64,000 bases of DNA, taken from a virus. Taxonomy: Duplodnaviria > Caudoviricetes. The stretch lies in the IMG/VR virus record IMGVR_UViG_3300006151_000005, positions 32,001 to 96,000 of that record; one strand, 5' to 3'. The position numbers were made by a program, and so were the translations under genes. The notes beneath the pieces are model-generated. The model did not search any database. It was not told the DNA's origin and worked only from the letters and a program-made list of their open reading frames with translations. Of the stretch, positions 31,741 to 61,561 are shown piece by piece (within the stretch, counting starts at the first letter, position 1; each line of letters begins with the position of its first letter).

Positions 31741-32076
31741 ATGAAACTGATAACAAAAGCACTTGAAAAGACCTTTGCAAAATATCCCATGTATTCGCAG
31801 GATGGCAAAGGCAACGATGCGGTAGTAATCGCAAAATTCTTTCTGCCGGGTAGCGGCTTCACATGGTACGTCACAGAAGCAGAAAAGCAGGCCAACGGCG
31901 ACTACATGTTCTTTGGCTATGTAGAGGGCTTGGATAGCGAGCTTGGCTACTTCACACTATCGCAGCTTCAAAACGTGCGCGGTCGTTTTGGCTTGCGCGT
32001 TGAACGCGACATGTATTTCAACAACGGCAAGACCACACTTGCTCAAGTGAAACGCGAAAACGAAATGGCATACTAA
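31741..32076 (+). CDS. DUF2958-like early protein
   Basis: KFFLPGSGFTWYVTE...FFGYV...ELGYFTLSQL...VERDMYF. Confidence 0.75.
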   Translation: MKLITKALEKTFAKYPMYSQDGKGNDAVVIAKFFLPGSGFTWYVTEAEKQANGDYMFFGYVEGLDSELGYFTLSQLQNVRGRFGLRVERDMYFNNGKTTLAQVKRENEMAY

Positions 32077-37205: not shown

Positions 37206-37493
37206 GTTAGACGCAGACGTACACCATCAACAAGAACTATGGCATACTACACCGGTAGCTATGCAGACCAGAACATGATGTCACCATACGGAATGGGATA
37301 TTCTCAGTCACAGGTGGCAATCAACAATCGCGCACAGGCTCTCCGTCGTCGTGTTGGCGATATGAACGTTTCATCATCCCAACGGCAAAGGTATTACGAT
37401 ATAATAGGCCGAGCCAATGGCAATATGTTTCAGGCAATAAGAACTGCAACGGGGGGGCAAATGACCACTTCCCAATTAGGTTATGCGTGTTAG
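37206..37493 (+). CDS. Small Arg/Gln-rich protein with putative GTT start
   Basis: GTT AGA CGC AGA CGT... = VRRRRTPSTRT in frame with track ORF 37239; same GTTAGACG opening as 33311. Confidence 0.55.
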   Translation, partial: VRRRRTPSTRTMAYYTGSYADQNMMSPYGMGYSQSQVAINNRAQALRRRVGDMNVSSSQRQRYYDIIGRANGNMFQAIRTATGGQMTTSQLGYAC

Positions 37494-37553
37494 AGAACCG
37501 GTCATCTCGCCGTCACATGACGGAAATAGCAAGTTCGACTCTTGCACACGCAG
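37484..37553 (+). tRNA. tRNA-like RNA with a shrunken anticodon loop
   Basis: TGCGTGT/ACACGCA acceptor; GAGA/TCTC D-stem; CCGTC-ACAT-GACGG; GCAAG-TTCGACT-CTTGC T-arm. Confidence 0.7.
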
Positions 37554-37584
37554 CATAGAAGATTAAAATTTCATTATCACGACG

Positions 37585-54207: not shown

Positions 54208-54990
54208 ATGAGAATCAAGAAGCAAAAGTCGTTCAAGAACGGTACGGTGTACTGCCTTGAGCTGGAGGACGGAATGTTAGTAGAAACAACCGACACCTTT
54301 CTGCCATTCTACACCAAAGACGCAATCGGTCGCAAGCAGAATTTTCTTGACAACAGTCAGCTCGGCAGTCGTGCGGAACGCTGGATGATAGGCGTATCCA
54401 CGATGAGCGGATGCCCGGTTCACTGCAAATTCTGCGCAACCGGCAACATGAAGCGTTGGCGCAATCTTACGGCTGACGAAATTGTCGGTCAGGTGGAATT
54501 TGCCATCGCACAGGCAGGATTCAACCCGGCAGATGCCCGCGAGTTCAAAATCAACTACACGCGCATGGGTGAGCCTTTCTTGAACATCGACGCAGTTAAA
54601 GAAGCCATTGCCCGCATCACGGAAAAATATCCGAACACACATCACTACGTTTCAACCATCGGCATCGCCGGCAGCGATTTCTCTTTTGTCAAGGGGAACG
54701 TGACGCTCCAGATAAGTCTGCATAGCTTTGACGATGACAAGCGTAACTGGCTTATCCCTTACCCCAAGAAGATGACCATCGAAGAGCTGGGGCGCATACG
54801 CACGGAAAGCAACCTTAAAACGACCATCAACCTTACACTCGTTGACGAGTCGGATTTCGATGCTGAAAAGCCGGCGAAGTATTTTGACAAGGATTATTTC
54901 TTTGTCAAGCTATCGCCCATCAATCCCAACAGCATATCGGAAAAGAACAATCTCGGTAACGGTGTTATCGAGGGCGTGAACATTGTATAA
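54208..54990 (+). CDS. RlmN/Cfr-like radical SAM protein, C-terminally truncated
   Basis: VET, VSTMSGCPVHCKFCATG, RNLTADEIVGQV, MGEPFLN, VSTIG, LQISLHS, R..LIP. Confidence 0.8.
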   Translation: MRIKKQKSFKNGTVYCLELEDGMLVETTDTFLPFYTKDAIGRKQNFLDNSQLGSRAERWMIGVSTMSGCPVHCKFCATGNMKRWRNLTADEIVGQVEFAIAQAGFNPADAREFKINYTRMGEPFLNIDAVKEAIARITEKYPNTHHYVSTIGIAGSDFSFVKGNVTLQISLHSFDDDKRNWLIPYPKKMTIEELGRIRTESNLKTTINLTLVDESDFDAEKPAKYFDKDYFFVKLSPINPNSISEKNNLGNGVIEGVNIV

Positions 54991-55010
54991 CCACTTAACA
55001 CAACAACCAC

Positions 55011-55130
55011 ATGGAAGCAATCAAGAAACAGCTTGAATCTATGGGTTACGATTATGCAGTCGCTATCGCAACCAAGTCGGAAATTGAAAACGGAGCCGCC
55101 TGCGGACAACTCGCAATCATCACTGACTAA
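55011..55130 (+). CDS. 39-aa peptide carrying the RlmN C-terminal AACGQL motif
   Basis: MEAIKKQLESMGYDYAVAIATKSEIENGAACGQLAIITD*; own ATG and A/C-rich leader; different frame from the upstream gene. Confidence 0.75.
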   Translation: MEAIKKQLESMGYDYAVAIATKSEIENGAACGQLAIITD

Positions 55131-55142
55131 TCCCGGCAACCC

Positions 55143-55180
55143 GGCGGCTTGAGGAGTGCTTCGGTATTCTTCAAGTCGCC
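55143..55180 (+). other. Long hairpin closing the radical SAM/peptide pair
   Basis: GGCGGCTTGAGGAGTGC-TTCG-GTATTCTTCAAGTCGCC with G:U pairs. Confidence 0.6.
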
Positions 55181-55195
55181 ATTACCCTTGAAACA

Positions 55196-57257
55196 ATGGA
55201 AAAATTTCTACTGGCACTCCCGATATTAGGCATGGTTGTCGTTGTGGGCATCCCACTATGGGCATACGTGTCTTTCAAAGCATACAAGCGGAAGCTGCGC
55301 CGCTTCTATGACGAAATCAAGATTGGCGACCGCTATCAGTTCACAATACCGCCGTTGCATCCGTTTGACGAAGCCCATGTTTACAAGGCGACCATTATAG
55401 GCAAGGCGTTAGCCGGTGGAAAATCCTCGTGGGTACAATATCGCTACGATGACGGCTCGGTGTCGCAAGATGAATTAGGCGAGTTTTTTGACGTGGCATG
55501 AAGCAATAACCGATTAAAACTTTGAACAATGGAAAGAGATGAAAGCAAGACAACTCGGCATGAGTCTTTTGGTATAATCAAAGCCCATCGTATTGTAGGT
55601 CATTCTGGCTTCATGTATGGCTCTGATGTGAAATTGGATAGCTTCATCCAAATTGAAATTACCAAAAACTCAAGCGTGGAATATGACCGAGTATTGGGCC
55701 GCAGAACCTATTCGTCAAACAAGATGGAAGATTCGGTTGTCGCCATCAAGATGACACCGGCGCAATTCGCGGAGTTTATTACAACACTGAATATTGGTAA
55801 CGGTACACCTTGCACCATAGAAGAAATAGGCGGCGAGCGAATAGACCAGTTTAAGGAAGAAATTCAGGGTCGTGTTGATTACGAAATAGAGAAGCTGCGC
55901 AAATCCCTTAAAGAACATCGCAGGCAATTCAATAGGGCGAAAGAGGCAATCATACCCCTTATCGATAAGCTCCCCAAGAAACGCCAAGAAGTTATTTTAA
56001 GCATCATTGAAAGTGTAGCTACCAGTGTATGCTCAAATACGCCTTTTTATCTTGATACGCTTACGGAGGTCGTGGAAGAAGTTACGGCAACCGCCAAAAC
56101 CGAAATCGCAAGTTTTATCGGTGTGGCGCAGAACATCGCCACGCTACCTCAGAATAGGGCTGGCGTAGATACATCTAAATTACTCCCGGAAACATCTCAT
56201 GAATGATAACGTAAAGCTCACTGCGGAACAAATCCGCAAGATGAAACACGCCATCGGCTTCGCTCCGGCAAAGGCTAAGAAAGGATGCTACAAAGCATAT
56301 CGCAACTACTTTGTTTCAAGGAACGATGATGCAGACTGGGATGGTATTGTTGCCGCCGGTCTTGCAGTCAAGCGTAAGGATATTTTCTACGAGCTGAATG
56401 TGGTGTATCATCTTAACGCCAAAGGTATTGAGTTTCTATCAGAAATTACGGACATCAAAATAACAGAAGCAGAATGACATACGAAGCAATCATGTACGGC
56501 ATCAAGTGCAATCGCTGTCAACAAATCTACGAAGATAGCGAGGGTGCGAATCTTGCCGTCGATAGACATGGCAACTTGGAAGAAAGCGCACAAGAAGATG
56601 GGTGGTACGTCAACGGTGATAGGCACTATTGCCCCAACTGCTACACCATAAACGAAAACGATGAGGTCGTAACAAAGCCCCTTATTGACTACTATTTCTT
56701 CAAATTCAAGAATGTATTGCAGATGCTTACCGGTCGGCAATACACTTTCTCTGAAACGGAAACCCTCTTTGTACTGAAAAGCAACTATTGCTACAAGCGT
56801 CTGAATGAAGCGCAGTCATTGATATTGCGCGACATAATCCCTGATTTTGTGGTCGATTATAGAACACCGGAAAGGGTAAAGGGTAAACGCTACGAAACCG
56901 AAACCATCCGCATCCCCAAAGATTTTAAGCACAAGTAAAATGGAGGTATTGGATAGACACCAACTTTTAGAGCTTCAAGCTCTGGGCTATAAGCCGGTAA
57001 AGAAGCCTAATATTACCCTTGAAGATATACTGTGCGTACTGCCATCGGAACTTGACAAGGACGGCTATCATAGCAACCTCACCCTGACTGCCCCGGACAC
57101 GCACCACATAGAGCGATGGGTCTGCGGCTATCATAGCTACAACGTGAAAAAGATGGCGCACTGGTACTACGAAGCTGAAACCCCGCTTGATGCCGCGTAT
57201 GCGCTATTAAAGGGGTTCATTATGCGATACGGAACTGAACAATTAAACGAGATATAA
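55196..57257 (+). CDS. Five hypothetical proteins (55196-55501, 55529-56206, 56199-56477, 56474-56938, 56940-57257)
   Basis: Coupled same-strand ORFs. Confidence 0.55.
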
Positions 57258-57258
57258 T

Positions 57259-58053
57259 ATGCTTATCCAAATCACTAACCGATGCCAAGAGGGATGCCGG
57301 CACTGCCTGCAAAACTCCCTGCCAGACGGCCCGCACATGACGGAAGCGATGTTTAAGCGCACCCTTGCTTTCGGTAAGTTTCTGCGCTGCATGACCTACG
57401 TGATGAGCGGCGGCGAGCCTACGGAACATCCGCAGTTCTATGATTTCTGCAAGATACTGAACAACTTCATCAGCAAGAATGGCAACAAGGCCGCTTTTAC
57501 TGTCGTATCTAACGGAATGTGGTATCCCGAACAAGCTGAAACGATGCGGAAGCTGGCTCGCCTTGAACACTATGCAGGGATGCAGGTCTATACCAATCAG
57601 CAGTGGTATAAGGACTACGATTTCATTATAGCGCATAAGAAAGACTTGGAAGCCATTGAAAAGGTTACGGTTGATACCGAGTCATTACAGATGCAAGACC
57701 TCGGCAGGGCGCGATTTAACGAAGACGCGCAGCTTGAAGTGGCGAAAAATCCCTATCACATGTCATGTCTTAACGGTCATCTTATCTTCAAGCAAGTATC
57801 GCCTATGCGCCGACTTGAGGGGATGTTCATAAACGGAACGATGTGCAAGCCCCTTGTCGATTTCAGAGGCAACGTCCATCTATCGGAGTCGTGCCTATGC
57901 CCGTCATTCGGAAACGTTGATACCGACATGCACATGGATATATTTCGCAATCTGCAAGAAGCGACCCCATGCCTCAAGTGTGCCGGCGGTAGAAAGTACA
58001 TGGAATCAACAGCCCCAGACATTGTGCGGGCTAAAAACATCATCGGGGTATGA
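57259..58053 (+). CDS. Radical SAM protein with Cys-rich C-terminus
   Basis: ITNRCQEGCRHC, SGGEPTEHP, SNG, C-terminal cysteines. Confidence 0.85.
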   Translation: MLIQITNRCQEGCRHCLQNSLPDGPHMTEAMFKRTLAFGKFLRCMTYVMSGGEPTEHPQFYDFCKILNNFISKNGNKAAFTVVSNGMWYPEQAETMRKLARLEHYAGMQVYTNQQWYKDYDFIIAHKKDLEAIEKVTVDTESLQMQDLGRARFNEDAQLEVAKNPYHMSCLNGHLIFKQVSPMRRLEGMFINGTMCKPLVDFRGNVHLSESCLCPSFGNVDTDMHMDIFRNLQEATPCLKCAGGRKYMESTAPDIVRAKNIIGV

Positions 58054-60384: not shown

Positions 60385-60840
60385 ATGCAGAGAATCATTA
60401 AATTTCGCGGAAAATCCGTTGCTGACGGTACATGGGTCTATGGCGACTTAATCCACATGAAAGGACGCAAGGTTGCGATATGGCCCACGGAAGAGAAATA
60501 CGATGGTGGCGCGATTGAGGTTATACCCGCTTCGGTGGGTCAGTACACCAATTCACGCGACTGCCTCAAGAAAGAAATCTACGAGGGTGACATTGTGCGC
60601 CAGAAATGGGAAACCACAGTGATAGATGAACACGATGACGCATATTCAGCAAAAGGAACGCAGACCGGAATTGTGGTGCTACGCACGAGGGGAGTCTGCA
60701 TGTCACCCTGCCTGAAAGAAAACGACCTTACGGAAGATGCGCTGCTGACAAAGAATGTACCTGTTACCGGGTGGCGTTCTGAAATCATCGGCAATACAAC
60801 CGACAATCCCTCACTATTTGAGGAAATCTGTAACCCTTAA
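60385..60840 (+). CDS. YopX family protein
   Basis: IKFRGK...WVYGDL...VGQYT...IYEGDIV...EIIGN. Confidence 0.85.
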   Translation: MQRIIKFRGKSVADGTWVYGDLIHMKGRKVAIWPTEEKYDGGAIEVIPASVGQYTNSRDCLKKEIYEGDIVRQKWETTVIDEHDDAYSAKGTQTGIVVLRTRGVCMSPCLKENDLTEDALLTKNVPVTGWRSEIIGNTTDNPSLFEEICNP

Positions 60841-60859
60841 CCAATTAACCCCAACTGCA

Positions 60860-61561
60860 ATGAAAAAGTACATCGGTACGAAGACGCTTAACGCCGAGCC
60901 TATGACAAAGGGCGAGGCTTATGACCGTTCTTTACTGCGTGGTGGAATAACACCCGTAGAGCGTGAAATCCTCGGCTATCATGTCGTTTATCCTGACGGC
61001 TATGAAAGCTGGTCGCCCAAAGACGTATTTGATGCGGCCTACAATGTCGCCGACACATTACTTGACCGCCTTAACATCGAATACAAAGAGCTTGACAAGA
61101 AAGCCGGCAAAATCGTTGAGTTCAGACTGACGGAAGCCTATAAGAATCTGCGCGACACCGACCGCGCCATGCTTGATGTTCAGTTCGACACCATGATTAG
61201 CTATCTGAGCATCCTCGGTTGTCGCTCTACATCAGTGGAAACAGGTCAGGGCGGCTTCTGCGGTCTTGACTTCGGCACGGCAATCCATCTCCTTGAACGT
61301 GGATACGTCATCCGTCGCAGCGGATGGAACGGCAAGGATATTGTCGTGTTCAAGCAAGTGCCGTCAAGCATCAAGAGCGACATCATTCCCAACATGCAAT
61401 CCCTGCCCCTCAAGGCTAAAGAACTTATCATGGCCGGAAACAAGCGTATAGACTACACCTCGCAGTGTCTTATCTATAACACGAAGACTGGTCGCGCCGA
61501 TAGTTGGGTTCCATCTATCAGCGACGTGTTCGCCCATGACTGGGAGCTTGTAGCCGACTAA
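60860..61561 (+). CDS. DUF2829 domain protein
   Basis: MKKYIGTK...GYHVVYPDGYESWSPKDVF; FGTAI...RRSGWNGK...WVPSISDVFAHDW. Confidence 0.75.
   Translation: MKKYIGTKTLNAEPMTKGEAYDRSLLRGGITPVEREILGYHVVYPDGYESWSPKDVFDAAYNVADTLLDRLNIEYKELDKKAGKIVEFRLTEAYKNLRDTDRAMLDVQFDTMISYLSILGCRSTSVETGQGGFCGLDFGTAIHLLERGYVIRRSGWNGKDIVVFKQVPSSIKSDIIPNMQSLPLKAKELIMAGNKRIDYTSQCLIYNTKTGRADSWVPSISDVFAHDWELVAD

Follow-up and report, generated by a model that had tools for sequence, protein, structure and literature searches.

A phage gene pair related to RlmN and Cfr: a probable two-subunit radical SAM enzyme lacking the second class A cysteine

The window analysed here, i.e. the whole stretch of 64,000 nucleotides (nt) covering positions 32,001 to 96,000 of IMG/VR virus record IMGVR_UViG_3300006151_000005 (a gut phage, Caudoviricetes; 105.5 kb in total), contains two neighbouring genes related to the radical S-adenosylmethionine (SAM) enzymes RlmN and Cfr (Table 1). 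The upstream gene encodes a core protein of 260 amino acids (aa), which ends with EGVNIV at a TAA stop codon (54988-54990). Radical SAM (PF04055, E 2.4e-9) was the only Pfam domain found in the core, and its best NCBIfam matches were the RlmN and Cfr models (E 4.9e-22 to 1e-13), headed by TIGR00048 (E 4.9e-22, model positions 81-266 of 355). All bit scores remained below the curated cut-offs, namely 78 against 290 for TIGR00048, 50 against 550 for TIGR04432 and 54 against 530 for NF000424. Sequence matches in the PDB were restricted to RlmN and Cfr. The AlphaFold2 (AF2) model of the core alone (predicted local distance difference test, pLDDT, 87.7) retrieved exclusively RlmN or Cfr among the top 11 entries of a PDB fold search (TM-score relative to the query, TMq, 0.59-0.66; E down to 3.7e-12), and RlmN was the best match in both sequence and fold.

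RlmN (TIGR00048) is the synthase of the C2-methyl group at A2503 of 23S rRNA and A37 of tRNA (PDB 3RF9/3RFA, 4PL1, 5HR6/5HR7 and 6FZ6). Cfr (TIGR04432; PDB 9P0P) methylates C8 of A2503 in 23S rRNA. Both represent textbook methylation via a protein-bound methylene radical, for which both need two cysteines. Class A methylases are defined by these two residues (PMC9692996; 10.64898/2026.02.27.707579). In the published mechanism, the methylene radical of the methylated cysteine adds to adenine, and the second cysteine, C118 in RlmN, acts as a general base: by taking the ring proton it causes the cross-link to fragment. The C118A/S mutants of RlmN and the C105A/S mutants of Cfr stall as covalent RNA adducts (PMC9692996; bioRxiv 10.64898/2026.02.27.707579). 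Furthermore, an N-terminal HhH2 domain of the class A enzymes binds RNA (bioRxiv 10.64898/2026.02.27.707579).

The phage pair shares with RlmN the CX3CX2C radical SAM barrel with the preceding beta-sheet extension, the motifs GEP, STxG and SLH(S/A), the LSP/LIP-xNP strand and the AACGQL cysteine loop. In contrast to RlmN, the loop is absent from the core and resides on its own gene product, the HhH2 domain is missing, since the core starts at the beta extension and its match to TIGR00048 only at model position 81, an additional insert of 26 residues is present, and the TIGR00048 score is low, as mentioned above. Among the cluster ligands, C73 and C76 show no variation in the family alignment and C69 hardly any. 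The second class A cysteine, expected seven residues ahead of the cluster motif, is not present, and Gly62 is found there: HMMER aligned ERWMIGVS of the core to DRTTVCVS of RlmN (6fz6) and to DRATLAVS of its C118A mutant (4pl1). Glycine occurs at this position in 19 of 20 diverse family members and alanine in the remaining one. The family alignment contains no conserved core cysteine beyond the three cluster ligands; Cys16, for example, is missing in the Moorella and Pectobacterium phage versions. In the insert just ahead of the C118 position, T36 and N45 are nearly invariant across the family, and this region was poorly modelled when the core was folded alone (pLDDT 59-66). The net charge is uninformative with regard to a nucleic-acid substrate (core pI 5.7 to 9.1).

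The downstream open reading frame (ORF) has its own ATG and encodes a 39-aa peptide carrying ENGAACGQL. In the peptide frame, a stop codon occurs at 54996-54998; because the core stop lies ahead of it, no single insertion or deletion can fuse the two frames. Using hhalign, a profile built from 17 peptide versions was matched to the C-terminal end of RlmN-like proteins, the ACGQL residues being in register (probability 81%, E 1.3e-5), and on sequence grounds it is strongly supported that the peptide is the counterpart of the RlmN segment comprising the last helix, strand beta-7 and the loop with the methyl-carrier cysteine. Cys31 is invariant in all peptide versions, including those of the Moorella, Pectobacterium and Yersinia phages and the fused forms described below; the invariant residues also include G12, Y13, D14, A16, V17, A18, A20, T21 and E24 as well as E26, N27, G28, A29, A30 and Q33. 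Across 32 distinct nucleotide versions, the peptide core showed a mean synonymous difference (pS) of 0.75, i.e. near saturation, and a non-synonymous difference (pN) of 0.09, so that we read it as a coding gene under strong purifying selection. Downstream of the peptide gene, the stretch 55125-55200 folds with a minimum free energy of -29.8 kcal/mol (z-score -3.6 against shuffles). Strong hairpins, unrelated in sequence, are found directly 3' of the peptide ORF in most related loci, and the hairpin probably marks the transcript end of the two-gene cassette; a scan with a consensus terminator gave no match there because the hairpin has no U-tract. A first-pass annotation, made from the letters alone, had described a 260-aa protein with RlmN motifs but without the C-terminal segment, a glycine in place of the resolving cysteine, a separate 39-aa ORF with its own ATG 20 nt downstream in another frame, and a long UUCG hairpin behind it. 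This description stands in all four points, as judged from the ORFs, the alignments to TIGR00048 and to RlmN structures, and the RNA fold.

Table 1. Features of the two-gene cassette, given as positions in the window.
Feature	Position	Strand	Basis
Core subunit, 260-aa RlmN/Cfr-like radical SAM protein	54208..54990	+	ORF list, PF04055, TIGR00048, AF2 fold
Family-specific insert, residues 33-58, PFYTKDAIGRKQNFLDNSQLGSRAER, just ahead of the C118 position	54304..54381	+	family alignment
Gly62 codon, position of RlmN C118 / Cfr C105	54391..54393	+	alignments to 6fz6, 4pl1, 3rf9, 9p0p
CPVHCKFC, CX3CX2C motif (C69, C73, C76), [4Fe-4S] cluster ligands	54412..54435	+	sequence and family alignment
Spacer, 20 nt, frame change between core and peptide genes	54991..55010	+	ORF positions
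Peptide, probable subunit, 39 aa, MEAIKKQLESMGYDYAVAIATKSEIENGAACGQLAIITD	55011..55130	+	hhalign, pN/pS, complex model
Cys31 codon of the peptide, equivalent of RlmN C355 / Cfr C338	55101..55103	+	alignment
Hairpin, 17-bp stem, cUUCGg tetraloop	55143..55180	+	RNA fold

The split is a conserved property of the family. The homologue search covered 5.8 billion proteins and resulted in 2053 matches; among the matches listed nearly all are 260-261 aa long, and the longer homologues inspected have their extra length at the N-terminus only, all of them ending at EGVN(L/I)(V/I). In our first set of 85 sources (84 loci and the window), a small ORF with its own ATG was present in every case, and core and peptide were the only genes common to all 85. 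Elsewhere, spacers of 11, 17, 19 or 20 nt were observed, with a frame offset of 2 in 69 loci and of 1 in 8 loci. A wider viral set of 159 loci comprised 71 distinct core genes, and the peptide gene was kept in 70 of these 71 distinct loci: it adjoins the core in 46 according to the script and additionally in L136, which was missed by the script's pattern, and it is situated approximately 1.2 kb downstream of the core in 22 loci and approximately 0.4 kb in one. The sole locus without a peptide ORF (L170:7935-8771) has an aberrant core end (…HLGYDKRRITK) and probably represents a decayed copy. In 22 of the 71 loci (e.g. L104-L109; L079:3780-4968), two genes are inserted between core and peptide, one encoding a further radical SAM protein (255 aa) and the other a small SAM methyltransferase of class I (148 aa); this insertion belongs to one gut-phage lineage.

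Split and glycine are also common to cultured phages, namely the crAss-like Bacteroides phage Kehishuvirus 'tikkala', which has the closest cultured relative of the core gene (69.5% identity), Moorella phage MTATph1 (45%), and Pectobacterium phage Arno18 and Yersinia phage P778 (36%). The peptide ATG of the Moorella phage is preceded by the Shine-Dalgarno-like AAAGGAAG, and in the annotated peptide ORF of the Yersinia phage, AAGGTGG is located ahead of an internal ATG that probably represents the true start. With its own ATG and the varying spacer and frame, the translation of the peptide separately from the core is strongly supported. In Arno18 (Ounavirinae) and the related P778, a gene of approximately 90 aa was observed between core and peptide (L086:3379-3657, L094:3378-3650); this gene is conserved, its product contains a single conserved cysteine, and its GGY(D/E)V motif recalls GYDY of the peptide. 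Both the split and the Cys-to-Gly change are thus conserved among the homologues, the close family does not consist of single fused ORFs, and no other conserved core cysteine takes the resolving position.

The core-peptide complex was modelled with cluster and SAM included, alongside three controls. The median score reached 0.63 compared to 0.01 for the best control; in the benchmark, 58 of 80 solved complexes attained the mark applied to this score, as did 2 of 110 mismatched pairs. The runs shared at least 80% of the contacts, with a partner pLDDT of at least 70. Peptide residues 13-18 pair with the core strand 231-236, and the rest of the peptide contacts core residues 75-81, beside the cluster motif, and residues 39-47 of the insert. 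Hence, the peptide is predicted to dock as the missing strand of RlmN, in the arrangement expected from this enzyme, although such a model shows resemblance and does not prove binding.

Several relatives carry both parts in one chain. P0181 (347 aa) and P0245 (337 aa) have the segment at the C-terminus, i.e. in the normal order, while P0126 (315 aa) is a permuted fusion with an N-terminal segment. The P0126 gene (L088:44-991) encodes an SSACGQL segment of the AACGQL type, which is joined to the core by a linker of approximately 20 residues, and a further radical SAM gene follows in this locus. We calculated a tree of 48 proteins from a 197-residue core by a quick search, with the two-cysteine RlmN/Cfr-like sequences chosen by us as root. 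Every protein without a C118-type cysteine fell into one clade (Shimodaira-Hasegawa-like approximate likelihood ratio test, SH-aLRT, 97), which comprises the split family, P0181 and P0245, a fused family named 'SNCGQ', and a 'KIGVS' family, the members of which end just past the beta-7 strand. As P0126 branches within the split family (SH-aLRT 98), it is regarded as a secondary re-fusion. Since C118 is missing throughout the clade, in fused members too, its loss is old and not tied to the split, which it predates according to this tree. Moreover, the existence of fused relatives implies that the C-terminal segment behaves as a part of the enzyme.

The SNCGQ family consists of fused, C118-less RlmN-like proteins of approximately 300-320 aa (e.g. 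P0210) and occurs in at least 562 species. From a scan using one genome per species we kept 80 loci (L180-L259), all of which belong to bacterial or archaeal metagenome-assembled genomes or isolates from many phyla. Cysteine conservation is limited to the three cluster ligands and the cysteine of CGQ, and none of the curated family models covers the family. The SNCGQ gene follows the gene of a thioredoxin-reductase-fold flavoprotein in 67 of the 80 loci, and in 50 of the 80 an isochorismatase-family cysteine hydrolase is encoded upstream of the flavoprotein; the genes of this operon commonly overlap by 4 nt (example locus L178:488-3010). As CxxC is absent from all 67 flavoproteins, they look like electron donors and not like the source of a resolving thiol, and a role as thiol-disulfide partner was rejected. 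Neither hydrolase nor flavoprotein was found in the phage loci. The SNCGQ proteins resemble the phage pair in their position in the C118-less clade and in the lack of an N-terminal domain, but they differ by being single chains of cellular organisms encoded in a hydrolase/flavoprotein operon.

Two comparisons with two-cysteine enzymes complete this picture. Cfr has the same class A architecture and mechanism as RlmN, matches the core at E 1e-13 to 1e-14 and differs from the phage pair in the same respects as RlmN; furthermore, the Cfr residues Ser151 and Ser153, which contact the U2504 phosphate, align to Lys and Asn in our mapping, and nothing in the Cfr comparison suggests a role in antibiotic resistance. 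The enzyme of Stenotrophomonas phage ANB28 (319 aa) is likewise phage-borne, of the RlmN lineage and shortened at the N-terminus, but it is a single chain with both the C118-type (VICCS) and the C355-type cysteine (GGGCGQL). Its gene (L093:2995-3954) forms part of a tRNA gene cluster of the phage, consistent with an ordinary role of the tRNA m2A37 type.

Taken together, we consider it rather probable that the locus is a conserved two-gene phage cassette for a two-subunit enzyme of the RlmN/Cfr lineage (class A), in which the adduct is resolved differently from RlmN. It is strongly supported that the core carries the [4Fe-4S]/SAM barrel and that the 39-aa peptide is a homologue of the C-terminal segment of RlmN; most likely, the peptide is a subunit of the enzyme. 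The peptide strand YDYAVA is expected to add beside the core strand FVKLSP, and the Cys31 loop would come to lie above the active site at the place of C355 in RlmN, as suggested by model and homology. By analogy to RlmN chemistry alone, one SAM would methylate Cys31, the 5'-deoxyadenosyl radical from a second SAM would turn this methyl group into a methylene radical, and the radical would attack an sp2 carbon of an adenine-like ring. The adduct would then not be a dead end but be resolved by another base or another route than in RlmN. This is the most likely outcome because the C118-type cysteine is lacking in the whole clade, fused members included. The general-base role of C118 could be taken over by another group, and most simply the C118-less clade uses another base, another way of adduct resolution, or a substrate that does not need C118. 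The literature searched contained no account of an RlmN-like enzyme that is split or lacks C118; the split C118-less family is apparently an undescribed variant of the RlmN/Cfr class.

However, several points weigh against this interpretation. The C118 and C105 mutants stall, so that turnover without this residue is an assumption, and no replacement base for C118 was identified. The long retention of the split is unexplained if the peptide is merely a subunit. In addition, the complex model may have passed due to its likeness to the solved RlmN structures, and the tree is limited by its quick search, by the core length of 197 residues and by the outgroup, which was our choice.

The gene neighbourhood hints only loosely at the target, pointing to DNA metabolism in most phages and to salvage of nicotinamide adenine dinucleotide (NAD) in one. 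In the window, a DnaQ-type exonuclease is encoded upstream and a sliding clamp downstream of the cassette; elsewhere the usual neighbours are a helicase, an AAA_24-domain protein, homologues of NinB and NinG, and exonucleases. Another protein of the window (60755-61558, plus strand; 268 aa) combines a crAss001_48-related domain with a Tad2-like one (Thoeris anti-defence 2; E 1.4e-15). A second radical SAM protein of the window (57259-58053, plus strand; 264 aa) has CX3CX2C at residues 8-15 and a Cys-rich C-terminal half, with its best, weak matches among SPASM-type maturases; the radical SAM proteins of the window, L079 and L088 are unrelated beyond the superfamily, by which a conserved second radical SAM partner could be rejected. 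ARAGORN detected tRNA genes beside the cassette in 2 of 38 loci scanned, flanking it in L001-L003 (counted as one) and 1-2 kb away in L069, with none in the other 36; Rfam added one weak tRNA match in L036. This rarity rules out a general linkage of the cassette to tRNA genes. In some prophage-like loci, the cassette is flanked by odd tRNA-like genes (L001:3753-3884, L001:4929-5009, L036:3949-4135); one has an 8-nt anticodon loop (ARAGORN 'catc'), and two are Rfam tRNA matches in which internal insertions extend the length to 132 and 187 nt. In the window itself, ARAGORN reported a 71-nt tRNA with a two-base 'anticodon' (ca) at 37484-37554 on the plus strand.

Among the alternatives, we give a small chance to the possibility that the two-piece enzyme acts on a small adenine or pyridine nucleotide, such as NAD or an immune signal derived from NAD or adenosine triphosphate, in phage counter-defence. 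This assumption would be consistent with the absence of the macromolecule-binding N-terminal domain and with the SNCGQ operon, which with its hydrolase and flavoprotein looks like small-molecule metabolism, and in the window the Tad2-like protein is encoded 5.6 kb downstream of the cassette. A further hint comes from a phage-like contig (L097:1616-7070), in which the split core and a 69-aa peptide ORF, a distant member of the family, directly follow genes of the nicotinamidase, nicotinate phosphoribosyltransferase (NAPRTase) and nicotinamide/nicotinic acid mononucleotide (NMN/NaMN) adenylyltransferase type, which share their strand; a gene of the NUDIX/NrtR type is located close by. However, NAD genes stand beside the cassette in only 1 of approximately 170 loci, and its neighbours are as a rule genes of replication and recombination. 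A tblastn search of these loci with the NAD genes of L097 found only a NUDIX homologue, situated approximately 1.9 kb upstream in three loci of one phage lineage, which would still fit a nucleotide target. Moreover, the L097 nicotinamidase is only approximately 24% identical to the hydrolase of the SNCGQ operon.

The first-pass annotation put forward a possible peptide-nucleic acid ligase, in which the methylene bridge from Cys31 to an adenine of tRNA, rRNA or DNA remains unbroken and each peptide is used once. The observations that led to this proposal hold, as Gly or Ala occupies the C118 position throughout the family and no other conserved cysteine could substitute for it. Furthermore, the C118 and C105 mutants of RlmN and Cfr form stable cross-links, a cysteine on a small separate peptide makes stoichiometric use cheap, and the split is conserved across host phyla. 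The conclusion is weakened, however, by the fused relatives, by the older loss of C118 and by the replaceable nature of the base. C118-less single chains exist, including the cellular family in at least 562 species, and a permanent cross-link in such single-chain relatives would trap the whole enzyme; P0126, a member of the split clade, has even re-fused peptide and core. In addition, the RNA-binding N-terminal domain of RlmN and Cfr is missing, and no consistently linked nuclease, protease or repair gene was found among the 85 sources. Hence, a permanent ligase is less likely than an enzyme with the peptide as subunit, and we regard it as improbable. Similarly low is the chance we assign to the broader version, in which a consumable 39-residue peptide would become methylene-linked to adenine or a similar ring of nucleic acid, NAD or an immune signal during infection; if true, this would represent a radical-SAM 'peptide tagging' reaction during infection.

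The first-pass annotation also mentioned a RiPP-like system (ribosomally synthesized and post-translationally modified peptide), in which the peptide would be the substrate and the modified peptide the product. A short acidic peptide beside a radical SAM enzyme indeed resembles RiPP clusters, 22 of the 71 loci have genes for a second radical SAM protein and for a small methyltransferase of class I between core and peptide, and more radical SAM genes occur near the cassette in the window and in L088. These extra radical SAM proteins are, however, mutually non-homologous and absent from most loci. Furthermore, the peptide has no leader-core organisation, it is homologous to the C-terminal strand and cysteine loop of RlmN itself, and it is fused to the enzyme in relatives, all of which makes this proposal very unlikely. 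Finally, that a local lesion, frameshift or assembly error broke an ordinary fused gene, as the single chains of RlmN and Cfr could suggest, is practically ruled out by the order of the stop codons, which forbids a single frameshift, by the shared terminus and separate ATG in nearly all homologues inspected, cultured phages included, and by the purifying selection on the peptide.

The favoured two-subunit enzyme would place the methyl carrier of the phage on a detachable peptide of 39 residues. In a large phage family and its cellular sister family, the carrier cysteine has been kept while the second cysteine was lost. If the product is released in another way, the accepted mechanism of RlmN and Cfr would need revision; if covalent peptide adducts are made, this modification would be of a new kind. 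Human-gut phages, crAss-like ones among them, commonly carry the cassette, and its presence in cultured phages (crAss-like Bacteroides phage as well as Pectobacterium, Yersinia and Moorella phages) makes experiments feasible. The identity of the target would reveal what these phages alter in the infected cell.

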